Shown here: one piece after another, positions 11 through 49,315 of the stretch
How the letters are laid out: every line of letters begins with the position of its first letter
How positions within the stretch are numbered: position 1 is the first letter of the stretch
Assembly (NCBI GenBank): GCA_044892525.1
Contig: CM097886.1
Location: 45,012,001 to 45,076,000, forward strand
From: Schmidtea polychroa
Taxonomy: Eukaryota
Length of the DNA stretch: 64,000 nucleotides
Reading direction: 5' to 3'
Program-made: the position numbers and the translations under genes
Notes under the pieces: model-generated
Databases searched by the model: none
The model's input: only the letters and a program-made list of their open reading frames with translations
Told to the model about the DNA's origin: nothing

Positions 11-3000
11 ATGTATTCCCCAGAAGATCTAGAAACAGCACGACTTAACGTACTCTTCCCAGCCAGACGAGAATCCATTTTGTCAAATATGGTTACAATA
101 ACTGGGGGAACAAATTATCAATCAGGCCCGAATTACGAACTGCTATTATCGCCAGACCATTTTCAACAAGCTACGTCAAACATGATGAAAGCCATGTGGG
201 GAAGATTTTTAGTTTTTGGACAAATGATGGCCGGAATATTGGGGATCATACTCATAATTCAGATAGTCAGAGTAATACTAACACAAATGTTAGCTTGTTT
301 TGATATATACAAGCGAGAAAAGAAAGTAAATTGGAAAATGATAGTAGGCTTTCTACCATTCCTAGCTAAAACCATGGTGTTACATGGTCACTCAAAGGAC
401 ATTCACCGAATAAAACGATTAATTAAAATATTAACAAAGATTAAAGGAACCGACGAAGAAGTAGGCAGACGATTCCGGAAAGTAATGTACGATGAAGCAA
501 CAAGACGACAATTGAAAAAGAATAAGCCAAAATTTTTGGACCGATTTAGAAGTCAATCATCTAACAGCAATAGTGACGACGATGATAACGGGAACGATAA
601 ATGTATATATCCAAACAGAAACCCAAACGAAAAACCAATGGAAACAGCACCATATTGGGAGAAGGAAAAGACAAACACCTGGATCGCCAATGGAAGCTAT
701 ATACCGCCAGATATCGTGGGACCACAAGCAGCTTTGACCATGACACAAAATATGTATCCGCAATTACCGAGTCAACCAGGTATGCATTATATGCCAACAC
801 GACGTACCAAAAGTGTAGATCAAGCAGATGACGTAAGAACAATAGCAGCGATGAGTCTACCTGGAGGTCCAGCAGTAACAGTTATGATTCAAATCAATGG
901 TAAAGAAACCAATGCTATGATAGACACCGGAGCTAATGTATCAGCGATAGCGATTAATCAAATTCCCAGTAAGCACTGGAAGGATATCGAATCAACAACA
1001 ATCCACATCATAGCATGTAGTAAAGAAACAGTAGACGTGGTCGGAAGATGGTGGACTACATTGAGATACCAGGACAACGAAATTGAAACGTATTTGGCAG
1101 TAATACCAAAACTTAGCGTACCATGCATAATCGGAACGGATCTGATGCCAGAATTATTAAAAGAAGTGGTAATAGACTTAACAACCATGTGTCTAAAGGA
1201 CAAAACCGGTAGAATATGCAAAATGAATGCAGTAATCAGATGTCCAGAAAAAATAATAGTACCAGCGAAATCGCAGATGATTTGTCAGATAAAGGTGGAT
1301 ACGGGTATGGAAGGAGAAGTTATCTTTGAACCAAGCAAGTCATTCGAAAAGCGACGAGAGTTACCACTCGCAAGGGAAATAATCACAATAAACCAAGAAG
1401 GAGTGATACCGCTCAACATCACGAATTTCGAAGAGGAAGACAAAATCATTTATGAGAACGAAAAATTGGGAAGATTGACCCCAATGATGGACATAGAATT
1501 ACCGAAAGTGACCAACGAGATGATCAAAGATGATGAATTATGGACAATAGATAGTATGTTGTTGACGAATGATGAAAAGAAAAAATTGCACCGATTGTTG
1601 GTAGAATATAAAGATATATTCGCCATCTCAGATTTAGATTTGGGTACATGCGATGTTACCCTACATGCAATACCACTCATAGATGAAACTCCAATTGCAC
1701 TAAGACCATACAAGCTAGCAGAAATGCAAAAAGAAATAGCCGAAGCAGAAGTACAAAAGATGCTAGACGCAAAAGTAATCGAACCGAGTTGCTCACCCTG
1801 GCAATTCCCAGTGGTCATGGTAAAAAAGAAAGATGGCACCCAACGATTCTGTATCGATTATCGGAAGTTAAACGCAGTAACCAAGAGAGATACCTATCCA
1901 TTGCCGGACATCAATGAGATGTTATTGATATTGCAAGGGGCAGCATATTTTACTTCTTTAGATCTAAAAAGTGGATACTGGCAGATTAAAGTCAAAGATG
2001 AGGACAAAGAGAAAACAGCTTTCACGTTGGGACGAGATCTATATCAATTCAGGAAAATGCCATTCGGACTGACCAATGCACCAGCATCATTTCAACGGTG
2101 TATGAACTTTGTCACTCATGGAATCAAACAATGTATGGTATATATTGATGATTTACTAATCTATTCAGCGACATTTGAACAACATCTGGAAGATATCCGA
2201 AACGTATTTATTAGATTAAGACAGTGGAAACTCAAACTCAAACCATCAAAATGCGATTGGGCAAAGGAAAAAGTCACGTTTTTGGGACACATAGTGTCAG
2301 CTAAAGGAAAGGAGCCAGATCCAAGAAACATTGAGAAAATAAAAACATTTCCAGCACCGAAAACTGTCACCCAAGTTCAGGAATTTCTAGGATTATGCGG
2401 ATACTATCGCAAATTTATCAAAAATTATGCAGGAATTGCAAAACCAATCCAGGAATTAGTAAAGAAGGACATTTCGTTCATTTGGGGGAAGGAACAACAA
2501 GAGGCGTTTGAAACGCTGAGAGACAAACTAATCGAAGCACCTATCCTCGTACACCCAGATTTTAAGAAGCCATTTCTATTGGCAACGGATGCAAGCGGGT
2601 ACGTGGCAGGCGCGATTCTGGGACAATTAGACGACGAAGGTAAAGAAAGAGTAATTGGATACTACAGTCGAACATTCAAAAAGCACGAGAAGAACTATTC
2701 GGTAACAGAACGAGAAGCATTGGCTATAATACAGGCAATCAAACATTTTCGATATTTGTTATGGGGACATGAGATATGTATAACCACAGATCATCAACCA
2801 TTAGTGTGGTTAGGGCAACATAAAGAAGCGTCCAGTAGACTGATGAGATGGGCCATGCAATTGCAAGAATACTCCCCATTTATAAAATTCAAAGCGGGAA
2901 GAGCAAATGCCAACGCCGATTGTATGTCAAGATTTATTTTTCCAGATTTGGTGGATTCAGAAATGCAACGCATATGCTTAATAGTAGCGGAAGATTTGGA

Positions 3001-6000
3001 TTTCTGTCAATTGCGAAAGGACCAACAAGAGGACGCGGAATTAAAACAAATTATCGATTATGTAAAAACCGGAAAGACAGATGTATACGCGAAAGACCAA
3101 AAATTAAAAGAACATATGGATAAACACCGACACCGATATATTATAGAGAAAGATTGGTTGCTGATAATGGATGGGGAAAAACGATTAATGTGTATACCGG
3201 AAAACCGACGAAAAGAGTTACTAACGCAATATCACGATGGGAGATTGGGAGGACATATGTCATCGAAAAAGACGTTAGCAAGAATGAAACAGAAATATTT
3301 TTGGCCTACGTTAACGGAAGATGTAACCGAATGGGTAAAAAATTGTCTAACTTGTGCGACCAGGAAGAATACTGGATCGAAATGGAAAGCACCTTTAACG
3401 CCAATGCCAGTACCAATAGAACCAATGACGATGATATCTATGGACGTCGTCGGTCCATTACCGGAATCGGATAGAGGAAACGTTTATATTTTAGTGATTA
3501 CAGACTTTCTCACGAAATTTCCAGAAGCATTCGCGATGCCAGACCAAAAAGCTAAAACAATCGCAAAAATTTTGGTACAAGAGATATGTTGCCGATATGG
3601 AATACCAAAACAGATATTAACCGATCAGGGAACTAATTTTATGAGTGAGATAATGAGCGAAGTAACAAATTACTTCAAAATCGCAAAATTAAGAACATCA
3701 CCGTATCATCCTCAAACCAATGGGATGACGGAAAGATTTAATGGAACACTTATACAAATGTTATCAAACTACGTCGACCGTCACCAACGAGATTGGGACG
3801 AATATATAAACCTATGTCTTATGGCGTACAGAATGTCGATTCACGCATCAACGAAAATGAGCCCATTCAAATTAATGTACGGAAGAGAATGTAACATGCC
3901 AATGGACCTGGAATACCAACCACCGATATCGCAGTATATGGAGATCGATGATTATGTTACGAAATTCAAGGAAAGAATGCAAGAAATTTGGGAAACTGCG
4001 GGATTAAATATCAAGTTCTACCAGGAAAGTTATAAAGATTTACACGATCGAAAGAAAAACGTGAAGCAACATACGTTTCAAACAGGTGATTGGGTGATGA
4101 TCGAGACCCCAGAATTAATTCCCGGAACCACAAGAAAATTACAACGGAACGGAAAAGGGCCATATGAGATCCTATTTGTAGGCGAAACCAACGTTAGAGT
4201 GAAATTGATAAATAATCCATTCACCAGGCCAATATACGAAAACGTGGCACGATGCAAATCAATTCCAAAAACAGCCACCAGTCAACCAGAAGGCCGTACA
4301 TTAACCACACGTTCGCAAACCTACAGAATGAACATGATGCAACAACTCGCAGAACCTATCACGGGACGATTGGGCATACAACCATCGGAAGCCGAAAAAA
4401 TCGTACGAGAGGTAAAGATAAAATTACCCGGATGGGCAAAAGATCGATTAGATTTCGAAATATTAGGAGGATTATTGACGATGATCGAAAACTATGCAAA
4501 TAGAGAAAGGACACACCCATTATTGCGAGTAGTCAAAAGCCAATGGCCAATATTATTTACAATAACAGATCATTACGGAGACACACCATTACACAAACTC
4601 ATGAAAGTAGCTAACAACGAGCAAATACTAGAAACAATAGAAGCATTTCACGACTGCAAGCGATCAACAGAACAAGAAAATACCCAAGGTTACACACCAT
4701 TAATGATAGCAGCAAACAGAGGCAAAACAAAAGACATCATAACCGCATTACTTGATACTGGATCAAAAATAACTACACAAGATCGCGAGCGGAAAAACGC
4801 ACTACATCATGCTATCGAAGGGAAAAGTACCGAAGCGTTCACATCGTTGATGGAGTTACTATCATATGAGGACAATCAAGAAGTTGGAAACATGTATGAT
4901 GGATTATTAACAGCGATCAAAGAGAAACTGACAACAATTACAGGAGTATTAATCACTTGGAGAAACCCAATTAAAAATAATTATATGATCAACGTAAACG
5001 AAGCATTCACGAAAGGGGAGAACACGCTTATGAGAGAAGCTATGAAAGGACATCATTTATTCGAAATCCCGAATCAATTGTTAGAACGAGGGATAACATT
5101 CACAAATCATAAGGATGAGCAGTTATTAAAAAAGCGAATAGACGCATTCGAAAAATCAATATTCCAATTTACTAACCAAGTACGAAATAAATATTGGGAA
5201 ACGGTAAGTGTGTTATACACGATGGATACAATGAACAACATCCGCGAGAATTACCTGGATATTATCCAAATACTTACAGCAGAGCAACGAATCAATAATC
5301 CAAACGGAAAGAAAACGAAAATAAGGTATGGGAAATCAAGGGAACCAAAGTCGACAACGAACCAAACGGTCACAAACAACGTCATCGAAACAAAATCAAT
5401 GAGTGTAGATCAAGAGGCAATAATACGCAAAGCGAAAGAAGTATTCTTTGAAGAAATGCTAGAGTTGTCAGACGAAATAATATTGTCAAAAATAATAAAA
5501 GCCGTACACACATACGCAAGAGATCAAACCACGGGTTTAGATATCGGGAAAATCAAAACCTTCTTGCCTCGAGCATTTACGATGGTGACGAAAGATTCAA
5601 GAACACCATTACAACAAGCAATACTAGCTGCAAAAGAGAATAGAGCAATAACGATCATGAGAATCCTTAGGGATATGGGCGAGGAAACCAATACGAAAAA
5701 TGAACAAGGCGAAACCGCCATGATGTATGCAGCTATAACGAAAATACACCCAAAAACACTCCACGTCCTACATCAATCAGGATCGAGACTAGACGAAAAA
5801 TCAAACGAAGGGAACTCCACATTGGACTGGGCAACCATACAGCCTAATTTAGGGATGATCAGATTTATTTGCAAAAATGCGACAAAAGAAGAAGTTGAAA
5901 ATATATGCAGAAACACATCTCAATTTCAATGGAATACGGTACGGAAAAATCTAGAGGCAATGAAATTATTATTAACATGGAGAGTACCACAAAGTAGTAA

Positions 6001-7102
6001 ATATGCGATAAATGTAAACGAATTCTACGAAAACGGAGAAAACGCGATGATAAAGAATACATTAACTAAAGGGGGGACACCAAAAATTATTTTAATAGTA
6101 TTAAATAGAGAAGACCTAAAATTCACGCAAAATCAGAACGAGCAACAACGAATTGGGAAACATCGTCGTATTCAATTGAGAGAGTTAGTTAAAGAATGGA
6201 ATAGAAAGAGACATGCTGCAACAGGTAGAAAAGAGTTTGAATTCGAAGCAAAGTTAGCAAGAAACAGAGTGTTAACAGCATATCGCAGACTATTGAACGA
6301 TATAAATGTCGAGGACGACATTTTAAACGACAGCGGGGGAGATAAACACGGTGACAATGACGGAAAAGGCCGAAAGGAGGATAAAGGGAAAAGAGAACCA
6401 GAAGAGGATAAACCGGAAAACAAGGATTCAGGTACGAGAGGAGAGGGAAACAGCCCGGGAACCAAGACCAAAGAGGAGGAAAAACCGAATAATGGAAAAC
6501 AGAGGGTATGCCTACCTTTCACTAACAAAGAAATGGAAACAAATATGATCTTAATGATAATCATGCTAACCATGATAGAGTTAGTAAGAGCTCATGGAGG
6601 GACGAGAACGATGAAAGAAACTAAAGAAGCGGGGAATCAAGATAGCAAAGAGGAAGAACTAAAACAAGAAAAGAAAAAGCAAGCACAAGAGCAGCAGTGG
6701 GAAGAATGGGACCTAAAGGAAAGGTGCATACTAGGAAGATGTATGTCTAGAGCGTATCAGAGATTAGTACTGGTAAATGAGGACACAGAACCGATAACAG
6801 AAGTAAGAATACAAGAAGCATACCGAAATCGAGAAGGGAAGAGAATAACGAACGTTAAAGGAAAAGAGGTGCACCTAGGAAAAGGGGGTGAAGTAGTAAT
6901 AACGCAGCTCCAACCAAGAAAAGAGCACAAAGTCTGTATTTCAAGATTAGGACCAGGTGAAAGATGCCATCAATATGTGACGCAGCAGCAGCCCCCGAAA
7001 GAATGCACGGTTTGTATCTGGAGGAACGAATCAAAAAGGGAATGCCGACGATACCCGGGGAAAAGAGGGAAGAAAAGAAAAAACCACGACGAAAAGGACT
7101 AA
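11..7102 (+). CDS. pol: Polyprotein (5'-incomplete): Env C-terminus/TM - aspartic protease - RT - RNase H - integrase - ankyrin repeats - C-terminal membrane module
   Basis: TM FLVFGQMMAGILGIILIIQIV (~205-300); protease IDTGA (~920); RT SPWQFPVVMV, LDLKSGYWQ, MPFGL, YIDD (2141-2152); RNase H LATDAS, YSVTEREALA; IN H-x6-H..CLTC, MDVVGP, TDQG, GMTERFN, GPY motif; ankyrin-type GDTPLH, GYTPLMIAA, KNALHHA, RTPLQQA, GETAMMYAA. Confidence 0.95.
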   Translation: MYSPEDLETARLNVLFPARRESILSNMVTITGGTNYQSGPNYELLLSPDHFQQATSNMMKAMWGRFLVFGQMMAGILGIILIIQIVRVILTQMLACFDIYKREKKVNWKMIVGFLPFLAKTMVLHGHSKDIHRIKRLIKILTKIKGTDEEVGRRFRKVMYDEATRRQLKKNKPKFLDRFRSQSSNSNSDDDDNGNDKCIYPNRNPNEKPMETAPYWEKEKTNTWIANGSYIPPDIVGPQAALTMTQNMYPQLPSQPGMHYMPTRRTKSVDQADDVRTIAAMSLPGGPAVTVMIQINGKETNAMIDTGANVSAIAINQIPSKHWKDIESTTIHIIACSKETVDVVGRWWTTLRYQDNEIETYLAVIPKLSVPCIIGTDLMPELLKEVVIDLTTMCLKDKTGRICKMNAVIRCPEKIIVPAKSQMICQIKVDTGMEGEVIFEPSKSFEKRRELPLAREIITINQEGVIPLNITNFEEEDKIIYENEKLGRLTPMMDIELPKVTNEMIKDDELWTIDSMLLTNDEKKKLHRLLVEYKDIFAISDLDLGTCDVTLHAIPLIDETPIALRPYKLAEMQKEIAEAEVQKMLDAKVIEPSCSPWQFPVVMVKKKDGTQRFCIDYRKLNAVTKRDTYPLPDINEMLLILQGAAYFTSLDLKSGYWQIKVKDEDKEKTAFTLGRDLYQFRKMPFGLTNAPASFQRCMNFVTHGIKQCMVYIDDLLIYSATFEQHLEDIRNVFIRLRQWKLKLKPSKCDWAKEKVTFLGHIVSAKGKEPDPRNIEKIKTFPAPKTVTQVQEFLGLCGYYRKFIKNYAGIAKPIQELVKKDISFIWGKEQQEAFETLRDKLIEAPILVHPDFKKPFLLATDASGYVAGAILGQLDDEGKERVIGYYSRTFKKHEKNYSVTEREALAIIQAIKHFRYLLWGHEICITTDHQPLVWLGQHKEASSRLMRWAMQLQEYSPFIKFKAGRANANADCMSRFIFPDLVDSEMQRICLIVAEDLDFCQLRKDQQEDAELKQIIDYVKTGKTDVYAKDQKLKEHMDKHRHRYIIEKDWLLIMDGEKRLMCIPENRRKELLTQYHDGRLGGHMSSKKTLARMKQKYFWPTLTEDVTEWVKNCLTCATRKNTGSKWKAPLTPMPVPIEPMTMISMDVVGPLPESDRGNVYILVITDFLTKFPEAFAMPDQKAKTIAKILVQEICCRYGIPKQILTDQGTNFMSEIMSEVTNYFKIAKLRTSPYHPQTNGMTERFNGTLIQMLSNYVDRHQRDWDEYINLCLMAYRMSIHASTKMSPFKLMYGRECNMPMDLEYQPPISQYMEIDDYVTKFKERMQEIWETAGLNIKFYQESYKDLHDRKKNVKQHTFQTGDWVMIETPELIPGTTRKLQRNGKGPYEILFVGETNVRVKLINNPFTRPIYENVARCKSIPKTATSQPEGRTLTTRSQTYRMNMMQQLAEPITGRLGIQPSEAEKIVREVKIKLPGWAKDRLDFEILGGLLTMIENYANRERTHPLLRVVKSQWPILFTITDHYGDTPLHKLMKVANNEQILETIEAFHDCKRSTEQENTQGYTPLMIAANRGKTKDIITALLDTGSKITTQDRERKNALHHAIEGKSTEAFTSLMELLSYEDNQEVGNMYDGLLTAIKEKLTTITGVLITWRNPIKNNYMINVNEAFTKGENTLMREAMKGHHLFEIPNQLLERGITFTNHKDEQLLKKRIDAFEKSIFQFTNQVRNKYWETVSVLYTMDTMNNIRENYLDIIQILTAEQRINNPNGKKTKIRYGKSREPKSTTNQTVTNNVIETKSMSVDQEAIIRKAKEVFFEEMLELSDEIILSKIIKAVHTYARDQTTGLDIGKIKTFLPRAFTMVTKDSRTPLQQAILAAKENRAITIMRILRDMGEETNTKNEQGETAMMYAAITKIHPKTLHVLHQSGSRLDEKSNEGNSTLDWATIQPNLGMIRFICKNATKEEVENICRNTSQFQWNTVRKNLEAMKLLLTWRVPQSSKYAINVNEFYENGENAMIKNTLTKGGTPKIILIVLNREDLKFTQNQNEQQRIGKHRRIQLRELVKEWNRKRHAATGRKEFEFEAKLARNRVLTAYRRLLNDINVEDDILNDSGGDKHGDNDGKGRKEDKGKREPEEDKPENKDSGTRGEGNSPGTKTKEEEKPNNGKQRVCLPFTNKEMETNMILMIIMLTMIELVRAHGGTRTMKETKEAGNQDSKEEELKQEKKKQAQEQQWEEWDLKERCILGRCMSRAYQRLVLVNEDTEPITEVRIQEAYRNREGKRITNVKGKEVHLGKGGEVVITQLQPRKEHKVCISRLGPGERCHQYVTQQQPPKECTVCIWRNESKRECRRYPGKRGKKRKNHDEKD

Positions 7103-7697: not shown

Positions 7698-8057
7698 ATG
7701 GATCAAGGAAATAACGAAATGAACCACAACACAGTAACCGAAGAATTATGGAAGCAACAATGTGCCGTATTAGCACAATTAGTGTCCAATTTGCAAGAAC
7801 AAGGATTGACGATGCACAGAAACCTAATCGAGAGTATGAATAGAGGATTTAGTTATTTGAAGATAATTGAAGACCAGAGGTTAAAAATCGAACAAATGCA
7901 AAGAGAGATAGAGAGGATAACCCAATATAGCCGAAGACAGGAAATTGAGTTGGACAGAGTGATGGAGGAAGCAGAACAGACAGAAATAGAAGACTGGTCA
8001 GAATGGCTAATGAGTAGAGAGGAGGACGGACACGAAGCCGACTCTTCCGAACCATAA
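7698..8057 (+). CDS. Cargo ORF 1, small acidic coiled-coil protein (likely start MDQG at 7698; ORF track start 7674)
   Basis: Open and near-identical in copy B (37641..38024); heptad-like Q/E-rich helix. Confidence 0.7.
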   Translation: MDQGNNEMNHNTVTEELWKQQCAVLAQLVSNLQEQGLTMHRNLIESMNRGFSYLKIIEDQRLKIEQMQREIERITQYSRRQEIELDRVMEEAEQTEIEDWSEWLMSREEDGHEADSSEP

Positions 8058-8144
8058 ACCAAACCTAGCTTAAAAAATGTAAATAATTGTAATTAAAATA
8101 TCGAACCTGTATCGATAAGAACTATATGTATATATAATTATAGA

Positions 8145-9533
8145 ATGGATGAACGACAAAGAGAAGAGTTCAGAGAGATTGTCGAACAAGTCCGAAAATC
8201 TACAACGATCAAAATACACAAACATGTTATGTGCGGAATCTGTGAAAAGTTACTAAAAGAACCCCACCAAACCCAATGTGGATGCAGAGTATGTAAAGAA
8301 TGTATCAGTGAAGCAATAAAGAATAGACCACAGTGGTGCCCGGTGTGTAAAGAGACACTAATATCGAGTTTAAAAGACACTAACGAGGATAAAGCCGCAG
8401 TGAAAGACATGTTAAACACCAATCTGGGATGTAAAAATACCCCATGCGAATGGAAAGGAGTAATATGGAAAGTAGTGCAACATATGGGAGAATGTATGCA
8501 CAGAGTCGGCCAGTGTGAAAGGTGCCATAAAACCATTCGAGCAAGCGAAGAAAAAGAGCATCAAAGGCAGTGTGAAGAGAGATTAGAAAGATGTGAACAT
8601 TGTGGAGAAATAGATACGTGGAAAAATCTCATCATCAAACATCACAATGTCCAAGAGGAAAAGGTATGTGCAGAGTTCAGTGGGGAATGCCCAAACGGAT
8701 GTAACCAAGGGGAAATAATAAAGGTGGCACAGCATCTAAGGGAATGTGAAAAGAAAAGAATGACATGTGTACTAGGTAAATGGGGTTGTCAGAAACTACT
8801 ACACCGAGGGGAGTTACCACATCATTTAGTAGAAAATGCTTCAACCCACGCAGAAATGTGGTCGACTGCGTTACAAGAAAGGGAAGAGAAAGTAAAACAA
8901 ATGGAGATAGAGATAACATCGTTGAAAGTGTTAGTCAAAGAACTACTAGAAGAAAGGGAAGCGTTCGAAGAAGCCCGAGCAAACATAAAGATGCAAATAA
9001 ACCGAATAGAAATCAGTAATAATCAGGCCAAGGAGCTACATCAGAAAATACGGGAAATAAATCTAAATGAGATAACCCCAACAGCACCCTACATATGGAA
9101 AATAACGGGAGTAAAAGAAAGAATACGAAAAGCAAAAACCGGAGAAGAGACAAGAATAACAAGTCCTGCATTCCATTCTTGGAAAAATGGGTACAAAATG
9201 AAAATGAAGATATATCCCAACGGGGACGGAACCGGATTAGATACACACTTTTCGATTTTCTTTCTGTTATGTAAAGGGGAATACGACGACATAATAGAGT
9301 GGCCGTTCCAGGCAAAAATCGATATTGCACTAATGAATGACCGAAGCATCCACGAACAAAGCTTCAAGACAACTGGAAACCAAATGTGTTACCAGAGACC
9401 TACGGAAGAAGAAGGATCAGCAACAGGAGCACCTACGTTCATCCTACAACAAAAAGTAGAAGATATGGCAAGAAATGACACGGTGTATATCAGGATGACC
9501 GTGAGGAAAGAGGAGAAGGGTAGAACGGAGTAA
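8145..9533 (+). CDS. TRAF: TNF receptor-associated factor homolog (RING - TRAF zinc fingers - coiled coil - MATH), intronless
   Basis: RING CGIC-x11-CGC-x2-CKEC-x11-CPVC; TRAF zinc fingers (CKNTPCEWKG..H..EC, CERC..H..QCEERLERCEHC); MATH motifs YIWKI, SPAFHS..GYKMKMKIYPNGDG.G.DTHFSIFF.LCKGEYD..IEWPF, DTVYIRMTV. Confidence 0.95.
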   Translation: MDERQREEFREIVEQVRKSTTIKIHKHVMCGICEKLLKEPHQTQCGCRVCKECISEAIKNRPQWCPVCKETLISSLKDTNEDKAAVKDMLNTNLGCKNTPCEWKGVIWKVVQHMGECMHRVGQCERCHKTIRASEEKEHQRQCEERLERCEHCGEIDTWKNLIIKHHNVQEEKVCAEFSGECPNGCNQGEIIKVAQHLRECEKKRMTCVLGKWGCQKLLHRGELPHHLVENASTHAEMWSTALQEREEKVKQMEIEITSLKVLVKELLEEREAFEEARANIKMQINRIEISNNQAKELHQKIREINLNEITPTAPYIWKITGVKERIRKAKTGEETRITSPAFHSWKNGYKMKMKIYPNGDGTGLDTHFSIFFLLCKGEYDDIIEWPFQAKIDIALMNDRSIHEQSFKTTGNQMCYQRPTEEEGSATGAPTFILQQKVEDMARNDTVYIRMTVRKEEKGRTE

Positions 9534-9726
9534 CCAATCGAATAATGTTGTATATAATAATCTGTATATATCGGTGTATATAACCAATAAAATATTATAT
9601 AATAATAGTATGAAAACCCTAAATACGAAAACCCAAAAATGATGCGAAAATTTCCGAAGAACCCGTAACTAATGAATAAATTCTTTTTCCATAATAAAAA
9701 GATTAATCGATATCTATGATTTAGAG

Positions 9727-10782
9727 ATGACACAAGAGAAAATATCCGGAACTACGATAGCCCCAACCAATGCCAACAAAACACAAATTCCTCGAGAATA
9801 TAACGAAAAATGGAACAAAGTAATGTTCCAACTAACTAACCTCACCCGAAATCACATCGAAGAAGCTAGAGAGGATGAGAACAGTAAATACCAATGGCTA
9901 ATACACAATTTAAGAGCGGAAGCAGAAGCATGCAAAAGAGCATCAAAATGGGCGTCATTAGAAAATACCCGCCAAGAAGCGCACAGCCATTATTTAAAGC
10001 AGCTGGTGCAGGAAGCGAGAAAGAGGCTCACTGACGAAAACGCAAAACGCGAAGCGGAAAAGCAAATAGAAGGAAGGAAAATGATGCATTTATTGACAGA
10101 GGCCAGAAAATGGAAAAGACAAAATAGTGAAATGAAAAAAGAGATGAAAGAATTGCCCATGAGACTCGGATATGAAAGCGAACAGGGCAAATGGGAGGAA
10201 AATTTAATAATAAAGGAAGAACTGAAACGGTTGAGAAAGGTCGCCGCTCGAAGCCAAACATGGCAGATGAAGGCCATGGAGTTCGAACGACATTTGGCAA
10301 TAAAATGCGACATAAGAGAGCACGAGAATGCCGCAATGGAAGAGATGATAACCCAACAAGCAGGACGGGTTGTGGAATTAGTAAATCAGGTAGAAGAGAT
10401 GAAAAGAGACCTTAATGGATTACAAGGATCGCTGGAACAAAGAAACATGGTCCTAGCTGGAAAAAACAGAAAATTAGAAAACGAAAGGAAAATGTACACC
10501 GAAAATATCAAAAACTTGGAAATAGAGATTGAAAAATGGAAGGGCGACGAGAAAATCAAGGCCCTAGACAGACAAATAGAGATGAAAGACGAAGAGACAA
10601 GGTATCTCACCTACCTGCTCGACGAAGAGCTGAATATCACTCGAGCCCTAAGGGACGAAGTTAATGAATTGAGAGCTCAAATCCCCCAATATCACCTACC
10701 ATATGACCCTATTGCGATACAGTTGTATCCAGTGGTCGATAGTGATGAAGGTTACGTGGGCCAGGAGGAAACCTTCGTATAA
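9727..10782 (+). CDS. Cargo ORF 3, 351-aa long coiled-coil protein of unknown function
   Basis: Intact with identical length in copy B (29745..30800). Confidence 0.8.
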   Translation: MTQEKISGTTIAPTNANKTQIPREYNEKWNKVMFQLTNLTRNHIEEAREDENSKYQWLIHNLRAEAEACKRASKWASLENTRQEAHSHYLKQLVQEARKRLTDENAKREAEKQIEGRKMMHLLTEARKWKRQNSEMKKEMKELPMRLGYESEQGKWEENLIIKEELKRLRKVAARSQTWQMKAMEFERHLAIKCDIREHENAAMEEMITQQAGRVVELVNQVEEMKRDLNGLQGSLEQRNMVLAGKNRKLENERKMYTENIKNLEIEIEKWKGDEKIKALDRQIEMKDEETRYLTYLLDEELNITRALRDEVNELRAQIPQYHLPYDPIAIQLYPVVDSDEGYVGQEETFV

Positions 10783-10825
10783 GGTGATTAAAAAGATAAA
10801 AAACTAAAAATCGGGACGTATACCC

Positions 10826-10856
<31 letters not shown>

Positions 10857-10912: not shown

Positions 10913-11656
10913 ATGTATATGTATAAGTCGCACTATAGTGCACCATTAACTGTACATATTATAGATATGAAAATCGAGGAAATAATAGAAATTATGAGCG
11001 ACGTAGAAGAGGGAGAGATTGAGGCAGAAACAACGGAAACACAAACGTTAAAGACCGAGTTACGGGAAGAGAAGTACGAAAACGAGAGACTGGTAAACAA
11101 GTATATAGAAGATCGGAAAATAATAAAGATATTAAAGAAAGAATGCAGAGTACTAGGGGAAGTAAAAAGAGAAGCAGAAGAGGAAAATAAACGACTTCAC
11201 GAACAGAGAAAACGAGGGAGAAATTGGGAGAAGATTGCGGAAGAATTATGGCAAGAAAGGGCCAGTAGAAAGGCAGACGAAGTGATTAGCGATTATTGGA
11301 AAACCGAGGCACGGAAATACCAAGAAAGCCTGAAGGAGTTACAACTCCAACTACACCAAAAACAAAGGGAATGCGAGATAATGAAAAAAATGAACAACAA
11401 ATACCAAGAAATCGATAACGGAGAAGACGAGGAAAGGGGAAATGATTTCTTACAAATACTAAACCATAAAAACCTGGAAAGAGCAACACAGGAAATAAAA
11501 GTGTTAAAAGGAAAAATAAAGTTCCTAGAACAACAGATAGACGAAAAAGATAAACAACTAGAAGTACTGCCAGAATTGAGAAAACGGGTAATAAAAGCGG
11601 AAACGGAAGTGATGAGAGCGTCTGAGAAAGCCCGTAAAAAGAAATCCCGACTATAA
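10913..11656 (+). CDS. Cargo ORF 4, coiled-coil protein (likely start MKIEE at 10967)
   Basis: Homologous open ORF in copy B (28875..29630); E/K-rich heptads. Confidence 0.75.
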   Translation: MYMYKSHYSAPLTVHIIDMKIEEIIEIMSDVEEGEIEAETTETQTLKTELREEKYENERLVNKYIEDRKIIKILKKECRVLGEVKREAEEENKRLHEQRKRGRNWEKIAEELWQERASRKADEVISDYWKTEARKYQESLKELQLQLHQKQRECEIMKKMNNKYQEIDNGEDEERGNDFLQILNHKNLERATQEIKVLKGKIKFLEQQIDEKDKQLEVLPELRKRVIKAETEVMRASEKARKKKSRL

Positions 11657-12362: not shown

Positions 12363-12900
12363 CAGTAATGTGATGTATATAATTCCGGTCACCCTAAGTG
12401 GCCACTGCTTGCTTATATTTGTCTTATTATCTGTTTAATTAAAGTATTAGTCAGTTAACTTATTTTATGTCTGTATGTATTTTGATTGTGGAAGTTTTGT
12501 GGTATAACAACAGAGGTATGATTAGAATGTATGACATTATGTGAATTGCGGGACGCAATTTTGATGGGTCCCCGAGTGATTTGTTGGGCTGAGCCGAAGG
12601 GTAGCTGGGAGATTAGGTCAAATGTACTAAAGTAAAATAAAGAAATAAAATAAACAAAGTTACGAACAAAATAGAATAGAACATAAGAAAACAATAATTA
12701 GAAAATAGGAATTAAAACAAAAAAATATAAAAATAAGAAAAATTAAAATAGGACAATAGAATGACGAAAAATAACGTAAAATATATTAGATAATAAGGAA
12801 AATAAATAAAAACATAATTTTAATCAAGAAAATAGGAAGAAATAACCCAAAAACAAGGAAAATAAATTAAATTAATAAAATAAGGCGGTATTCAATTCTG

Positions 12901-12933
12901 ATTGGTCCGCGTAAATAGAAAACTAATATATAA
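12901..12933 (+). promoter_or_regulatory. LTR core promoter: inverted CCAAT (ATTGG) plus TATA box
   Basis: ATTGGTCCGCGTAAAT..TATATAA conserved at 27625-27657 (-), in the solo LTR (-) and in variant form at ~21755-21787 (-). Confidence 0.7.
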
Positions 12934-13419
12934 GCAGACATTAAAATCATTATAATTACCGTTAATCCAACAACTACTATAGGTAAGTGTATTTTAATTA
13001 CCATTACCGTTAATCCAACAACTACTATAGAACTAGCGATTCACAGCAACATACACTGACTTACAGGATCATCACAAGGACTATTCCAAGACTCAAGAAA
13101 CTTCATCTAAATCTATATTCGATTCTAGTATTAATTAATTCTACTTAGTACTTTTCGACTCAGCCTATTTGAAACACTCGGTAAGGATTTTTGGATTTCT
13201 TATTTTGAATTTATAAGTAATGGTATAATCTAATTATAATTTAAATTTAAAGATCTTACCTTTTCTTTTCGTTTGATTTCAAGCATGTTATTTAATTTAA
13301 TGATATGGTTATTTAATAATAAATGATTTACTTTCTAGGAATTATTGATTTTCCTTTGATGAATTATTTTTATGAGTTATTATTATGTTAATTAAATTTT
13401 TGAGGAACGTGGCGTTGAG

Positions 13420-13545
13420 ATACTCTATGTCATGGTGTGAGGTGCCTTCGGGAGCTCCACCGGTGGACATAGGGTATTTCAATCACGCAGCTAGATTGGG
13501 CCGAAATGTGAGGGCTTCTTCACGGGTCCAATCGCTGAAGGTGCG
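13420..13545 (+). ncRNA. Conserved structured RNA element in the LTR (two long hairpins, one capped by C-UUCG-G)
   Basis: Stem ATACTCTATGTC/GACATAGGGTAT; homolog at 57890-58020 (-) shows compensatory and wobble changes. Confidence 0.6.
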
Positions 13546-15055
13546 ACCAAAATCTATAGGCAAATTGTGGCAGAAAATTGATAGTCAGATAGTGATTGAA
13601 AACAAAGATATGTAATAAATGAATCGGAGGATTCTTAGGTATTCGCGCAGTGATTGAGGGCGTCACACCATCGTCTCCAGATATCGTTTCCACTAAGCCA
13701 AATTTTCTCTATCATCGATGTAAGTTGTGTGTCAAACAATCGTTCGGACATTAGTGGGGCTATATGTGATATATCTTCGATGTTCATGCTTGCGCTCGGA
13801 ACCTATTCCTACAAATTTTCGGCCTATGACCTTTTGAACTGTTATTTCTTTCATCTAAAAGTTCTCTTGAAGACATAGTCGCAAGGAAGCTCAAAGTAGA
13901 TTGCTTCAGATAATTATTAGGATTATTCAAAATGACTGTTTACGAATAGATTGTAGAACCACGTAAAATTATTATTATTAAATATTATCATCTCTAGTTA
14001 GGTATTTGATGATGCATGTGATTAAATATTTATTTTAATGAATTTTGATCTTTTAGTGGGCTCTTAGATACGAAATTATTTCAATGGAAGAATGTTTTAA
14101 CAATTAAATCTCTATTTAAATCGACAATGTTCTTATTGGTAAAATATCAAATTTTCAAAGGAAATAGTCAGTATTTAGCTATGAATTAATAATAATTCCA
14201 GTGAACTTATATCGTTTTAGAGGTTTATTAGGTCGTGATGAATGTTATTGCACAGTAATTTAGATTTATGTTTTAGAACAAGTTTTTATTAATTATCCAC
14301 TGTTTTATTAAGTCGTTTAGGGTTAATAATCTATTTACTTGGTTTTGACAATGAAATATTTGAAATCTTTAGAGATAAATGATATCAAAGGTTATTTCTT
14401 TAAATTAGTTTATTTAAGAAGTTATTTTATTCATTGTGAGGATATCAGTGAAGGAAATTTATGATTTTAATTAGATTTCTAGAAATTAAATCGGTTAAAT
14501 ATCAGTTAATCTATTGAAGGAATATTGTTATCGGATGGATAAATGATATTTTGCTAAATTACCTTTGCTAAATATTATTTTAAATGACTAAAAATAACAA
14601 AATTAACCAATATTCATATATTTTTCCCACAAAATATCCATGTTTTGGTTACTCAAACATCTGAAATTTCTCGCAAAGATATATTACGTCTAATGATCAT
14701 CTAATTAAATTAGAAAAGAAATATAACCCTATATGAACATGTATTTTTAACTAATAAGCACCTTATTTGGTTAAATGATAACCATATTTCTATTATGACT
14801 CCTTTAAATATTTTTGCCTCGAACAAATTTACTCCAAATGATAAAGAATTTAAAATTATCAATGAATAATGACCATGTTTTTCTCATATTAATAACTATT
14901 GTAACGAACATTAGATGAATAAATTACCTTTTGCTTTAAATGTCTAAAAGGTTAACCAATAAATTAGTCGCTCGACATAAGTGTAAAGTTACATTTAAAA
15001 TATTCACGAATTTCTGATCATCTCACTAAATTACCTAAGAATTTCTAAATGATTA

Positions 15056-26839: not shown

Positions 26840-27250
26840 TATGAATGTATATGGTTGAATGTATATGTCATCATTGAACACCAATAGTTCGTGGCGACCT
26901 CTGATTATGAAAAACTATAATTTTAGTGAATGTAGGTTCGTAGACCCGTTCTTTTGTGTATGAGAATGATTTTAGGTTGGAAACAAGGCTGGTCAACGTC
27001 GCGAGCTATATACGTCTACGACGACGTTGATCACTCTTGTTCAGCATAAATCATAATGAAATACAAAACAAAAAAAATAAATAAGAGGTTGACTCAATTA
27101 TAATACATTTAATAAAACATGGGGCGATCATAAATAAAATATATACCCATTTTTGCATGTGCAAGTACACGTGTATGTATTGATGCATTAAAACAAACTC
27201 GAATTCCTTTTATTCTATAATTTTCTATTTTTGATATTTTTAATGGCAAT
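26840..27250. repeat. 411-bp direct repeat, copy 1 (copy 2 at 53850-54260)
   Basis: Identical apart from one substitution seen; brackets copy B. Confidence 0.95.
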
Positions 27251-28219
27251 CAAATTTATTAATCGGGATCAAGTGAAAAGAAAAGATCAAATGTAACTTA
27301 AAATTTTAATTATTTAATAAATATACATAGTTATTGTTACTTCAAAAAATTAAGAATAACAAATGAATACAATCTCTTACTGTCACGTTAGGCTGAATCG
27401 AAATATAAGGCTCGTCTTTTCTAAAATAGTCAACTGGTGTCGAAGCTGGTAGTCGGTTTTATGAGGTTCTCGAGTAGTTTCTCTGAATTTATTGAAGGTT
27501 TTCTGGTCCTAGAGTCAGTCCTGTAATGTTTTTTCAAATTAACACTCACGATACTTATGCTAAAATTTCTTTACCTGTAATGTTTTTTCAAATTAACACT
27601 GATTTTTATGATTTTGGCGTTGGTTTATATACTAATTTTTCATTTACGCGGACCAATCAAAATTGAGTACCGCTTATTTTATTAAATTAATTTGTTTTTT
27701 CCTATTTCTTTGGGTATTTTACTTATTTCCCTATTTTTATTATATCTTTTATTTATTTCCTAAATTCCTTATTATTTATTGCGTTTCCGGTATCTTATTC
27801 ATTATGTTATTACTTTATTTTTTTAATTTTTATTTTTTGTTTTAGTTTTTATATCTTATTTATGGTTTATTTTATGTCTTGATTTATTTATTCCTAAAAT
27901 TGGTGGTCTTATTTTATTTTATTCGCCTCTTATCTATCTTATTTTTCGACGATCATTTTTTCCAATTCAGCCCAACAAATCACTCGGGGACCCATCAAAA
28001 TTGCGTCCCGCAATTACATACTTACTTCATTCATTCATAAAAAGAAAAATAAAATAACCACAACATCATATACAATAAATTTATTAGTAAGATAAAGGTC
28101 AAAATAGGACCAAGCAAGTATCACTTATGGTTATAGGTTATATACACAGAAGTTCACACCAGATAATGTTTTACAGTTCACACTAGATAATGTTTTAAAT
28201 CAGTACTTGCATTGTTTTA

Positions 28220-30800: not shown

Positions 30801-31132
30801 CTCTAAATCATAGACATCGATTAATCTTTTTATTATGAAAAAGGAATTTATTCATTATTTACTGTTTCTTTGGAAATTTTCGCATCATTTTTGGGTTTTC
30901 GTATTTAGGGTTTTCATACTTGTTAAATAAAACTAGAAGTCGAATTCAAATTATATTCAAAAATTATAACAATATCGGTTTGACTAAACAAATCATTAAA
31001 TTGACGATTAAGCATTTCTAAATAACAATAATAATTATGTACGCCATAATATAATACGAATATAATACTTTAATATATGTATATGTTAATTTCTTAATAG
31101 TAATAATTCAGATGTAATTTATTATTATAATA

Positions 31133-34100
31133 TTATATTGTGCTAATAATTAAATCTTCCTCACATCCCCCCTGTTTAAAAGGCTTTAGCCATTCTACAT
31201 TTCGAATCATTGTTTTACCTTCTTTATCCATAAGTTCGTAACTTCTATCATGTAGTTTTTTTATCACTCGAAAAGGTCCTCTGTATCTATCATCTTCTTT
31301 TTTTCTTGTGTCTATCTTTACTAAAACGTTGTCATCTATTTTAAATTCTCTATTAATTCTATCTGCGTTTCTGTACTTAACATTTCTTTGCTTTTCTTGT
31401 ATCTCTTCAATGATTCTAATTCGGTCATTAGTAACTTCCTTTTTGTTTTGCCATTCTCTTGTTATTCGAAACCCAAATACTATTTCCGCTGGACTTTTCC
31501 CTAATGTACTTTGTACGGTTGCGTTCAAAGCAAATTCAATTTCTGGTAATACCTCTACCCAATTGCTTTTTAATCTATCTTTAATTGAGGTACTCATGAA
31601 ATCTCTTATTGTTCGAAATTGCCGTTCTATTAATCCATTTGCACTATGATGGTATGGACTTGAAAATTGAAGCATTATGTTATGGGTTTTAGCTAATTCT
31701 TTCATCACACCTGATTCAAATGTCTTCCCACAATCTACTTGAATTATCCTAGGAGAACCGTATTTTAGAATCCAAAATTTCATTATTGTGTCCGCTGTTG
31801 TTTTCTCATCTTGCTTAGAAACAGCTGTAAGAGAAATATATCGAGTGCACATATCAATAATTCCTAAAATATACTTTTTCCCATGTACACTTGTTTTCAA
31901 AGGTCCACAAAAATCTATAGCAATTGTTTCAAACGGTTTCGACACTTCCGTTTTTAGTATAGTTTCCTTTGTTTTAGTTGTTAGTGTTTTTCTTTTTTGA
32001 CATAATTCACAATTTTGAATAATTTCTGTAGTTATCATTTGTAATTCATCCATGTCATAATTTACTTTTATGTAGTCAATCACTTTTTTGCAACCTGCGT
32101 GGCATAGGATTTTATGCATTTCTTTGATAAATTTTTCGCGATTGTTTTTAGGAATCCAAATTTTATTTTCTTTTGTCATGATAACATCATCATCAATCTT
32201 AAATTTAGTTTTTACATTTTTCATGATTAATTCTTTTTGATTTTCTATCTCAACATTACCCTTTTGCCAAATCACACCTTGCTTAACAGCTGTCATTGTT
32301 AAAAGTCTTGTTTTCATTTTTTCTGTTTTAGGATTTTCATGAACTTCCATACATTGAGTACATCGTCCACACTTATCTCGGGATAATGCATCTGCATTGG
32401 TATGTTCCATACCTTTTCTAAATGAAATATCCATATCCAAACTGCTAAGAAAATTTATCCAAGTTTGGAATTGTGCCGTGATTGGCTTTTTTGTTGCCAT
32501 CATGAATGTTATTGCTTTATGGTCCGTTCTTAATTTAAATTTTTTCCCATACAAATAATGTTTAAAATGTTGAGTAAAATAATAAATGGCCAATAACTCC
32601 TTCCTTGTTATACAATAACCTATTTCATGCTTATTCATTGAATGCGAACCATATGCAATTACTCGCTCATGTCCCTGTTCGTCTAACTGTGATAAAACCG
32701 CACCAATTGTGTCAAAACTTGCATCAGTGTCCAAAATAAATTCTTTCTGAAAGTTAGGGTATATTAATACTGGTGTTTTCGATAATGCATTTTTTAATTC
32801 TTCAAATGCTTCTTCACATTTTTCTGACCATATAAGTTTTTCATTAGTCGTACCACATATAGACTCTAATATTCGTGAAAACATTGAATAATTTTTTATA
32901 AATTTTCTATAATAATTACACAACCCCAAAAAACTTCTTAGTTGTTTCAAACATTGAGGTCTTACAAAATTTTTAATTGCTTCAATTTTATTTTCATCCA
33001 CTTTCACACCTTCATTATTAATTATATGGCCTAAAAATTTTGTCTCATTTGTTAAAAATATACATTTTTCTGGATTTACTCGTAATCCCGCTTCCTTAAT
33101 TTTCATTAATACTTCATTTATTCTTTTAAAATGCTCTTCTTTATTTGTAGAAAATATTAATATGTCATCCAAATATACAATAGCTGTATTCCACAGAAGT
33201 TTTCCTAAAACCATATTCATTAGTTTTTGAAATGTAGCCGGTGCCGCAGCAATTCCAAAAGGCATTCTATTAAAACAGTACTGTCCGCTCCTTGTTGAAA
33301 ATGCGGTTTTTTCTTGTGAATTATTTGTTAACTCCACTTGATAATATGCACTTCCAAGATCTATAGTACTAAAAAACTTGGATCCATTGAGTGAATCTAA
33401 CATTTGTTCAATATTAGGCATTGGAAATATTTGTCTTTCTGTTATTTTATTTAGGTTTCTAAAATCCAAACACAATCTGATGTCATTCTTTTCTTTTTTC
33501 CAAACACATACCAATGGAGTATTCCAACTCGAATCACATTTCCTAATAATACCATTTTCTTCCAAATTTTTTATAGCTTCCTCAATTTTTTCTTCTAAAT
33601 GAGCCGGTTGTCGTCTAGGGTTCATGTAAATTGGGCCCTCAGTAGTTTTGATTTCGTGCCATAATAAATCTGTTTTTCCAATGTCCCATTTATCAGCCAT
33701 AAAAACTTCTTTATTTTCATTAATTATCTGATACATTTTATCTCCTTTTTTTAAATCAAATAATTTTATTGCTCGACTAAATCTTTTCTCATCATTATAT
33801 GAGTTGCTAAATCTTGCCTCAATATTACAAATTTCATTAAAATTATTTTCTATTTCCGTATTTTCAGTTATACTATCGTTTATTTTCATTAACTTGATGT
33901 TGAATTGACGAAGTAAATCTATCCCACCAATAATTGACGGTGAAACCTTTTTAACAACAACAAAAATCACATTCTCTTCTTTGTTACCGATTTGAATCTT
34001 CAATTTAACATTGCCAAATGTTTCCAATGGACTGCCATTTGCACACCAAATTCCTTCATTGTGAGGTTTAATATCTATCTCACCTATTTCTTTGATGATC

Positions 34101-34378
34101 GAGCTATCTATTACATTCATTCTAGCCCCCGTATCCAATAGACAATGTTTGAAATAAATCCTATTAATCCCAACTATTACGCTTGGTCTTCCACCCATCT
34201 TATCATATACAATTTCTAAATCGTCATTTAAAACAGAAATATTATTTATATGTTTATCCAATGTTTCGTCATAAACAAACCTTTTACTGCTATTTATTAA
34301 TTTTGCCTCACAAATACTTATTATCTTCTTACAATTCTGATCACATTTATTTTCAATTACATTAATTTTATCACGCAT
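31133..34378 (-). CDS. pol: Pol of the nested Gypsy (PR-RT-RH-IN); ORF runs through the PPT into the 3' LTR
   Basis: LDTGA, YLDD, LDTDAS, HKILCH..CELC, IDFCGP, VDCG, GLIERQFR, RGPF. Confidence 0.95.
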   Translation of the reverse strand: MRDKINVIENKCDQNCKKIISICEAKLINSSKRFVYDETLDKHINNISVLNDDLEIVYDKMGGRPSVIVGINRIYFKHCLLDTGARMNVIDSSIIKEIGEIDIKPHNEGIWCANGSPLETFGNVKLKIQIGNKEENVIFVVVKKVSPSIIGGIDLLRQFNIKLMKINDSITENTEIENNFNEICNIEARFSNSYNDEKRFSRAIKLFDLKKGDKMYQIINENKEVFMADKWDIGKTDLLWHEIKTTEGPIYMNPRRQPAHLEEKIEEAIKNLEENGIIRKCDSSWNTPLVCVWKKEKNDIRLCLDFRNLNKITERQIFPMPNIEQMLDSLNGSKFFSTIDLGSAYYQVELTNNSQEKTAFSTRSGQYCFNRMPFGIAAAPATFQKLMNMVLGKLLWNTAIVYLDDILIFSTNKEEHFKRINEVLMKIKEAGLRVNPEKCIFLTNETKFLGHIINNEGVKVDENKIEAIKNFVRPQCLKQLRSFLGLCNYYRKFIKNYSMFSRILESICGTTNEKLIWSEKCEEAFEELKNALSKTPVLIYPNFQKEFILDTDASFDTIGAVLSQLDEQGHERVIAYGSHSMNKHEIGYCITRKELLAIYYFTQHFKHYLYGKKFKLRTDHKAITFMMATKKPITAQFQTWINFLSSLDMDISFRKGMEHTNADALSRDKCGRCTQCMEVHENPKTEKMKTRLLTMTAVKQGVIWQKGNVEIENQKELIMKNVKTKFKIDDDVIMTKENKIWIPKNNREKFIKEMHKILCHAGCKKVIDYIKVNYDMDELQMITTEIIQNCELCQKRKTLTTKTKETILKTEVSKPFETIAIDFCGPLKTSVHGKKYILGIIDMCTRYISLTAVSKQDEKTTADTIMKFWILKYGSPRIIQVDCGKTFESGVMKELAKTHNIMLQFSSPYHHSANGLIERQFRTIRDFMSTSIKDRLKSNWVEVLPEIEFALNATVQSTLGKSPAEIVFGFRITREWQNKKEVTNDRIRIIEEIQEKQRNVKYRNADRINREFKIDDNVLVKIDTRKKEDDRYRGPFRVIKKLHDRSYELMDKEGKTMIRNVEWLKPFKQGGCEEDLIISTI

Positions 34379-34680
34379 CTAATTACAATCATTAATATCA
34401 GTTTTATCTCTTACGTCATATATAATCTTACTGTTACTCTGATTATCTTCCTTTATTACATCATATTTTTTTAATTTACTTTTCACGTTTTTAATACTAT
34501 CTTCTAAAATTACATCTGATTTAAATCTAATATTTTTTACCTTTAAATTTGATTTAGATATACTGTCTAAATTATTATTACTACTTTTAAAATTATACAT
34601 ACTGTCTAAATTACTATTACTATTATTATTAAAAAATATACTATACTTATCTTGGCGCACACAATCATCATTATTACCTT

Positions 34681-35844: not shown

Positions 35845-36166
35845 GTTAAATAAAACTAGAAGTCGAATTCAAATTATATTCAAAAATTATAACAATATCG
35901 GTTTGACTAAACAAATCATTAAATTGACGATTAAGCATTTCTAAATAACAATAATAATTATGTACGCCATAATATAATACGAATATAATACTTTAATATA
36001 TGTATATGTTAATTTCTTAATAGTAATAATTCAGATGTAATTTATTATTATAATATTATATTGTGCTAATAATTAAATCTTCCTCACAATACTATTATTA
36101 TATAATATTTTATTGGTTATATACACCGATATATACAGATTATTATATACAACATTATTCGATTGG

Positions 36167-45951: not shown

Positions 45952-46069
45952 ATTTATTGATGCTTTTCTGCTTGCGGGATCTTTCATCGGTAGTTCCCAT
46001 TCTAGTTCATTTAACAGCTTTTTCAATCTAACTTGCATCGATCTTTCTTGCTCATTTTTTCGTGGCGCT

Positions 46070-46518
46070 TGTATCAGTCTTTTCCATCCTCCGGCACGAA
46101 TAATATGTGGTTCAATAGTATTCTCTATGATTGAAACGGTCATTTCCACATGATTTGCAAACTGTTTATTTGGTATTTTCCTCGCAGCCAGTCCCATCAA
46201 ATTATACATCAAATACGTGATTACCACTAGATGATGTTCGTCATCATTTGCATTTGTCGTGAGCTGTTCAATCACTCTCTTCGTTTCATCCCAATCCGTT
46301 TTGGTGGTTTTCGTTTTCTCTTTGATTAACTTTGGGATTATCCCCGAAACGATGTGCCATAATTGTCTAGCTTCCGTACTGGCTACTTTCCGTTGCCACA
46401 AACGTCTAAGTTGTGGGTTTGTTATTATTAACATATCTTTGATCAATTCTCGTATCCATTTTTCTCCTCTTTCGATCGTTGGTTGGGCTTCCTTTAGATC
46501 CCATACTATTTTATCCAA
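46070..46518 (-). CDS. Bcl-2-like helical domain (degenerate BH1, recognisable BH2) immediately before the Env signal peptide
   Basis: VIEQL..helix..IENTIEPHIIRAGGWKRL parallels VVEELF..NWGR..LNRHLHTWIQDNGGWDAF. Confidence 0.5.
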
Positions 46519-49227: not shown

Positions 49228-49315
49228 TTGGTGGTTTAACTGACTGATTTGCTCCTTGTTTTGGTTGTTTCCCTCTTTTATTCTTATTTCCGTTTCTTCA
49301 TGTTTCTTTTCTATT

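Follow-up and report, generated by a model that had tools for sequence, protein, structure and literature searches.

TRAF-domain cargo in Burro, a giant Gypsy LTR retrotransposon of planarians, has reportedly been in print since Jurka 2007. The accessible part of PMC6431247 describes Burro with MATH_TRAF_C, BIR, ankyrin, ubiquitin-like, BCL2-like and env motifs, and a Dugesia tigrina element that has MATH on an upstream accessory ORF; the excerpt of PMC11410931 only mentions Burro. In the literature searched, which was in part available as excerpts and did not include Grohme 2018 and Lee 2026 (both may show the ORF), we found neither a complete RING-TRAF accessory gene after pol in Burro nor intronless planarian TRAFs, the only related statements being those on MATH_TRAF_C in PMC6431247. 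The Burro1 IAP (B-IAP; Lee et al. 2026 Dev Cell) protects stem cells, according to the available portion of the citing paper PMC13465017. BURRO1 is transcribed upon SMEDWI-2 loss, and BURRO1 RNAi did not rescue smedwi-2 animals (PMC8532177, excerpt); the failed rescue bears on another question, yet shows no simple BURRO1 phenotype. As for the hosts, knock-down of Smed-TRAF-2A/B is lethal and raises cell death (PMC7586133, excerpt), planarian transcriptomes contain 121 MATH domains (PMC6109357, excerpt), and the planarian TRAF expansion has been called unresolved (PMC8807557, excerpt).

We analyzed a window of 64,000 nucleotides, meaning the whole stretch of Schmidtea polychroa DNA under study, which carries two such elements, A on the plus strand and B on the minus strand. 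Judged by their domains and gene order, both are planarian Burro-type giant Gypsy LTR retrotransposons. As in Burro, an LTR-bounded unit above about 25 kb contains protease, reverse transcriptase (RT), RNase H and integrase followed by ankyrins, with an env-like region between gag and pol. The following features were located.

11..7102, plus strand: end of the env-like region of element A, then protease, RT, RNase H, integrase and ankyrin repeats, in one frame (Pfam)
7698..8057, plus strand: 119-aa accessory ORF between pol and TRAF (dN/dS 0.125)
8138..8143, plus strand: TTATAG directly 5′ of the TRAF ATG, a possible splice acceptor
8145..9533, plus strand: full-length TRAF accessory ORF of element A, 462 aa, intact (ORF list, Pfam, model)
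8232..8348, plus strand: RING domain, aa 30-68, with eight Cys ligands (Pfam zf-C3HC4, E 2e-4)
8430..8849, plus strand: zinc-finger region, aa 96-235, with 20 ligand positions as in other TRAFs (alignment)
8838..9065, plus strand: coiled-coil helix, aa 232-307 (AlphaFold model, 76 residues, pLDDT about 90)
9090..9503, plus strand: MATH / TRAF-C domain, aa 316-453 (Pfam E 8e-26 and 3e-26; fold match)
9586..9591, plus strand: AATAAA, 53 nt 3′ of the TRAF stop, a possible polyadenylation signal
9727..10782, plus strand: 351-aa coiled-coil-like accessory ORF (dN/dS 0.08)
10913..11656, plus strand: 247-aa coiled-coil-like accessory ORF
12582..13973 (approximate ends), plus strand: 3′ LTR of element A, whose 5′ LTR lies about 12 kb upstream of the window
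26840..27978, minus strand: 3′ LTR of element B
30921..36088, minus strand: unrelated 5.2-kb Gypsy element nested in element B, with identical 245-nt LTRs and an ATACT target-site duplication
36167..37555, minus strand: TRAF copy B, with an in-frame stop at codon 213
44029..50740, minus strand: gag, zinc knuckles, ubiquitin-like region and Monjiviricetes-type fusion glycoprotein of element B, 5′ of pol, in Burro order
52870..53412, minus strand: 180-aa ORF with an IAP-type RING (zf-C3HC4_3, Pfam), ahead of gag
53850..58874, minus strand: 5′ LTR of element B in two pieces (53850-54260 and 58136-58874), split by a 3.9-kb insert

The two LTRs of element A, 95.5% identical to each other, delimit about 26.6 kb, and the frame preceding its TRAF (2363 aa) opens with the final part of a Monjiviricetes-type fusion protein. 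Element B extends over 26840-58874, its two inserts included, and the pieces of its 5′ LTR are 99.8% and 98.5% identical to its 3′ LTR. Pfam detected no MATH or BIR in the element ORFs of the window other than the TRAF, and no BIR in the 180-aa RING ORF. Neither Pfam nor a PDB sequence search matched a BCL2-like motif before env; by eye, a BH2-like motif can be made out at the start of ORF 46434-44029.

Several further observations concern the structure of these elements. From gag to TRAF, elements A and B are 96-98% alike, compared with 92% for the 351-aa ORF, 81% for the 247-aa ORF and about 70% for the LTRs, a contrast suggesting mosaic, recombinant lineages. A run of about 28 A (10826-10853), present in A and absent from B, sits just after the 351-aa ORF, near where the identity falls. 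Contigs of two sequencing runs jump from about 8098 to 11701 (window 8076-11740), and in two runs contigs connect 11656 back to 8076, so that variants without, or with a duplicated, block of TRAF plus the two coil ORFs seem to exist. Pairs of TRAF copies lie about 26.2 kb apart on the same strand at G000:C4 46.26/46.28 Mb and 69.87/69.89 Mb and at G000:C2 177.70/177.73 Mb; at about one element length, these are probably tandem elements or local duplications. The nested Gypsy element (30921-36088) is young, carries gag and pol ORFs, and begins 78 nt after the stop of TRAF B, before the next accessory ORF. In both copies, at matching places, the capsid ORF is followed by a stop and the zinc-knuckle ORF by a frame change (window 50012-50005 and 49316-49227; L043:4898-4905 and 5594-5683), where the Burro1-type family described below has one long frame; the breaks could be family-specific recoding or a shared defect. 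A small RING ORF ahead of gag is found in both families (52870-53412, minus strand; L043:1602-2087; L090:7991-8473) and resembles the RING of the Burro1 IAP, without its BIR. The insert in the 5′ LTR of element B (54261-58135) contains a 287-aa ORF (55427-56290) that is related both to the leader region of element A (L043:2-708) and to 24698-25150; these are probably pieces of related Burro leaders. Between the elements lies a host tektin exon (23445-23666, minus strand; PF03148, E 8e-17), found when 71 of the 105 short frames of the window were scanned.

Next, we analyzed the TRAF ORF of element A. Its 462 codons contain no intron and no stop. A sequence-only reading of this DNA had proposed a complete RING-zinc finger-coiled coil-MATH protein as element cargo, intact in A, and this was borne out by Pfam, by the alignment of ligands, by the structural model and by the position between the LTRs, after pol. 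RING plus zinc fingers, a coiled coil and a C-terminal MATH place the protein with the TRAF2-6 type. The MATH domain scored 92.7 bits with PF21355 and 91.3 bits with PF22486. The zf-TRAF profile of Pfam gave no score in the 462-aa protein; 20 finger ligands align with those of other TRAFs, and 18 of them are invariant across 61 copies. An AlphaFold model built on a 30-row alignment (mean pLDDT 87.5, pTM 0.45) showed RING, fingers, helix and MATH. The top Foldseek folds for this model were TRAF1/2/3 domains (E 5e-18 for TRAF3), and a phmmer search of PDB sequences matched the C-terminal domains of TRAF1/2/3 (E 3e-27) as well as RING-finger structures of TRAF6/5/2 (E 3e-13 to 3e-9). Copy B is 97.6% identical to copy A and carries a single in-frame stop.

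The RING ligands of the element A TRAF are C30, C33, C45, C47, C50, C53, C65 and C68. As the sequence-only reading had noted, CGC (8277-8285 in A) replaces CGH in both copies. The canonical C3HC4 RING has His as the fourth ligand; here this position is Cys47 in all 61 copies, and the other seven cysteines are kept in 61/61 as well. Also conserved are I32 (61/61), P66 (60/61) and K69 (59/61), which correspond to positions of the E2 face of RINGs. Short A/T-rich spacers separate the accessory ORFs, and in both families an A/T-rich AG similar to TTATAG occurs a few bases 5′ of the ATG in most of them. Contigs of presumed-RNA runs covered the TRAF region in part, with diverged copies, and a control stretch did not confirm that these runs were RNA.

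We then asked how the TRAF is distributed and how it evolves. A DNA search, in which the best 40 of 359 candidates were scored, gave full-length matches at 94% identity or more in all 40. With the N-terminal 131 aa as query, there were at least 150 copies at 89% identity or more among the best 150 of 1045 candidates; 123 of these 150 lay in a 478-codon open frame without stop and 14 in frames below 450 codons. A 26-nt RING pattern had 114 matches in the genome and its control none. Unbroken ORFs were found in 39 of 41 copies of a first sample and at 16 of 20 loci of a second, fractions that are upper bounds since both samples consist of best-scoring matches, which favours intact copies. All 20 loci of the second sample had pol domains upstream and the 351-aa ORF downstream.

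The dN/dS ratio was 0.144 over 741 pairs of the 39 intact copies and 0.131 over 210 pairs of the second, more diverged sample. Variants common to at least two copies had a ratio of 0.155, compared with 0.268 for private variants (Fisher p 0.043). By part, dN/dS was 0.09 for the RING, 0.135 for the fingers, 0.15 for the coil and 0.11 for MATH, and the proportion of variable positions was 17-22% in RING, fingers and coil and 41/143 in MATH. Among the neighbours, RT, RNase H and integrase showed 0.011-0.02 and the ankyrins 0.14; these values exclude saturated pairs (19/190 for RT and RNase H, 18/171 for ankyrin, 37/210 for the small ORF, 20/210 for the 351-aa ORF; no pair was saturated for integrase or TRAF). 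We considered and dropped the idea of positive selection acting on the MATH groove, since dS is also highest in MATH and its dN/dS is 0.11. The sequence-only reading had named a TRAF limited to the two window copies and evolving neutrally as the outcome that would speak against it; far more copies were found, at dN/dS 0.13-0.15. These ratios indicate that the element TRAF is under purifying selection in at least 150 copies. Such selection shows that the gene helps the element, not how it does so.

A search with the MATH profile, in which the best 150 of 1551 candidates were scored, showed frames of 4791 codons and of 487 codons and led to a second, Burro1-type family. In this element, read in four stretches, a MATH domain lies inside the polyprotein, and pol is followed by a small ORF, a full TRAF of 474 aa, a 392-aa BIR-RING IAP and coiled-coil ORFs. 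At least 150 copies of this TRAF were found at 97% identity or more among the best 150 of 1034 candidates. The gene order is common to both families, the TRAF occupies the same slot after pol, and the 351-aa ORF of element A has a homologue downstream in the Burro1-type element. Identity between the families decreases from RT (92%) over RNase H (87%) and integrase (80%) to the small ORF (31%; the 119-aa ORF of element A) and the TRAF (29%); the gap between integrase and TRAF may be reconciled by the roughly tenfold higher dN/dS of the TRAF.

The two element TRAFs formed a clade (98/93 with LG+G4 on 55 rows; 97/97 with a mixture model on 28 rows), and this pair nested within the planarian TRAFs (100/99 and 96/97), although both are long branches that share an A-rich bias. 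Placed alone in quick trees, each fell beside the same host group (SH-aLRT 83 and 92). In a MATH-only tree of 34 rows the two were united at 93/73, and the polyprotein MATH joined them at 93/87. The nearest named proteins are triclad TRAFs, and no host gene is closer than about 30% identity. The third-position T content is 0.16 in the element TRAF, 0.18 in pol and 0.30-0.44 in host TRAFs, so the codon make-up is that of the element and unlike that of host TRAFs, which suggests an old residence. Trees and gene order together point to a single old capture from the planarian Cys-RING TRAF subfamily as the likely origin. Two separate captures into the same slot are a lesser possibility, left by the long biased branches and by 29% TRAF identity as against 92% for RT. 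The polyprotein MATH of the Burro1-type element (L087:4466-4966) has a host-like groove, unlike that of both accessory TRAFs, and 45% identity to the host TRAF L075; the two element MATH domains possibly have different partners.

Two features flagged by the sequence-only reading proved to be traits of the host. Set against a host gene in the window that it described as intron-rich, it had taken the lack of introns as a sign of mRNA capture, a reasoning that did not survive the comparison with host genes. In the host, at least nine TRAF genes belonging to the same subfamily, outside any Burro (pol-TRAF-coil) arrangement, run in a single coding frame, which is compatible with introns in untranslated regions. 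Among them, L075-L080, L092 and L121 encode everything from RING through MATH in a single frame of 330-487 codons, with nine distinct motifs. Some of these genes have Burro fragments within 30 kb, but not in pol-TRAF-coil order. Because the nearest host TRAFs are single-frame and a close parent is absent, intron loss is not demonstrable for the element TRAF, and only the fact that its carrier is a retroelement makes capture through an RNA step likely. In both trees L075 falls with Dugesia japonica TRAF2A, and a published Smed-TRAF-2A/B primer matches it with one mismatch, the published primers having no exact match in the 131 loci. On this evidence L075 is likely the orthologue of the essential Smed-TRAF-2A/B.

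The reading had likewise presented the His-to-Cys change as a variant of the element. Cys is the fourth ligand in all 24 distinct host RING motifs (23 CGC, 1 CSC), a count that rests on one spacing pattern and would miss other spacings. In a protein library, 91 of 150 matches had the RING pattern, with His in 64, Cys in 8 and other residues in 19; among the Cys proteins are TRAF-2 and -5 of Dendrocoelum lacteum and TRAF3-like proteins of crinoids and starfish. Five further CGC proteins overlooked by the pattern were visible in the sequences, and Dendrocoelum lacteum TRAF-4 also has Cys. The cysteine is therefore a trait taken over from the host subfamily, with nothing special about the element copy.

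The host genome also has a large tandem TRAF array on contig C2 (G000:C2, about 1-5 Mb and 105-124 Mb; L051-L074 and L115-L120), to which many of the top MATH profile matches belong. Its genes are shorter and intron-bearing, with Cys RINGs and with RING and MATH in separate frames. In the MATH-only tree, eight array genes and L092 formed a clade (99/96) apart from the element sequences, and six 10-kb array stretches showed host-like flanks and no Burro context. Element-borne copies had been suggested to inflate the apparent TRAF expansion. As regards counting this holds, since at least 150 plus at least 150 copies in two families inflate genomic counts; as an explanation of the expansion the element fails, the host array being its own clade. 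From the copy counts and the tree, then, element copies inflate genomic TRAF counts and did not found the host array. With several hundred element loci and few distinct proteins, genomic counts should be inflated far more than transcript counts. That element copies seeded the host expansion, as the dominance of hundreds of element-borne TRAF and MATH sequences in genome searches might suggest, is thus very improbable, given the separate clade, the split frames and the flanks of the array.

The reading that we lean towards is that the TRAF is a long-standing accessory gene, likely captured once, and that its protein likely functions as both TRAF adaptor and ubiquitin ligase, shifting host signalling to survival. 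A host-derived TRAF would have been captured once by an ancestor of Burro-type elements and kept as an accessory gene. It may be expressed from its own spliced or subgenomic mRNA, as the AG before the ATG and the AATAAA after the stop suggest. By analogy with its family, the protein would trimerise via the coiled coil and MATH, and its eight cysteines would bind zinc, for which there is a precedent in CNOT4. Its partner set may differ from that of host TRAFs, as several groove-lining MATH residues do: KTT stands for K/RPD, Q413 for Ser and GS for NI of the host and vertebrate pattern, and between subfamilies M414 varies as M/I/L, C415 as C/A, Q417 as Q/R and S425 as S/A. The groove positions are assigned after TRAF2 structures. 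Host death and immune signalling would then be tilted to the survival of the carrying cell, an output suggested by taking the essential host TRAF-2A/B and the IAP of Burro1 as analogues. Since the window family has no BIR-IAP ORF beside its TRAF, the TRAF does not need an IAP neighbour.

The sequence-only reading had also suggested that element copies could act as decoy or dominant adaptors. In favour of a decoy or dominant-negative TRAF, which would associate with host TRAF trimers or receptors and stop their signal instead of passing it on, are the coiled coil and MATH fold, both retained in the model and in the Foldseek matches, and the groove-lining residues that differ from the host and vertebrate pattern. 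However, RING and fingers, needless for a mere blocker, are the most constrained (dN/dS 0.09 and 0.135), the invariant RING ligands argue against a dead-ligase version, and CGC is the host state, not a lesion; we regard such a decoy as rather unlikely. A ligase directed at the element's own needs would ubiquitinate a host restriction factor or element proteins, so that particles assemble or silencing is evaded, and would hardly affect cell survival. It would suit an element that also encodes a fusion glycoprotein, ubiquitin-like domains and a further RING, and a groove remodelled and varying between subfamilies would fit a changing target. We consider such a ligase improbable, though worth keeping in mind: the low dN/dS and highest dS of MATH make this variation fit deeper or recombinant lineages, not positive selection, and other Burro cargo is death-related (PMC6431247, accessible part). 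A recent neutral passenger, that is, a processed host mRNA picked up by chance, would account for the absent introns and the broken copy B. It is scarcely credible in view of the dN/dS values, the same slot in a second family, the distance to any host gene and the fully element-like codon usage.

If the favoured reading of a working, pro-survival adaptor and ligase is extended, the Burro TRAF would become a second host-control gene: a full ligase with a re-shaped groove, in several hundred intact copies of two families, that would make up a real share of stem-cell TRAF signalling and form, with the IAP, part of the survival and immune circuit of the host. We regard this larger picture as doubtful, albeit conceivable. 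The kind of finding is in itself unsurprising, TRAF-domain cargo in Burro being known and the two flagged features being host traits. The planarian TRAF expansion can nevertheless be split in two, a true host expansion (single-frame genes plus the tandem array) and one old lineage that elements carry in several hundred copies. Counts, RNAi design and read mapping must separate host from element TRAFs, and a full TRAF beside the Burro1 IAP is the obvious next cargo gene to study, given the reported role of the IAP in stem cells.

Compared with described systems, the window element resembles Burro/GYPSM1, as far as the partly available descriptions go, in its size of about 27 kb, gag zinc knuckles, a ubiquitin-like region, an env-like fusion protein placed between gag and pol, ankyrins after integrase and coiled-coil and RING accessory ORFs, and its RT is 92% identical to that of a Burro1-type copy. 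In Burro1/GYPSM1, according to those descriptions, the published MATH lies within the polyprotein, whereas the window family has a separate complete TRAF gene downstream of pol; the window family lacks both the MATH in a polyprotein of ~4,870 aa and the BIR ORF, which the second family has. Burro1 B-IAP is likewise a host-derived cell-death regulator kept as an accessory gene, and in the Burro1-type copy the IAP ORF directly follows the TRAF. B-IAP has a reported stem-cell function, at least in the excerpts available, whereas that of the TRAF is predicted here, and the window family has no IAP. The C4C4 RING of CNOT4/Not4, which binds two zinc ions and an E2 (PMC4431670, excerpt), has eight Cys at zinc-ligand positions as in the element TRAF; the protein is unrelated and serves as a precedent only. 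Vertebrate TRAF2/3/5 share the domain order and MATH fold and differ in the His fourth ligand (C3HC4), a longer coiled coil and a serine-rich groove. The planarian host TRAFs (Smed-TRAF-2A/B, Dugesia japonica TRAF2A, and Dendrocoelum lacteum TRAF-2, -4 and -5) have the same length, domain order and CGC RING, belong to the same clade at about 30% identity, and run in a single coding frame in the genomic copies read. They differ in occurring singly or in small clusters without pol, in T-rich third positions, and in a groove nearer the vertebrate pattern. As far as the literature searched and its excerpts go, what reaches beyond the published MATH_TRAF_C cargo is a full RING-TRAF accessory gene downstream of pol in two families.
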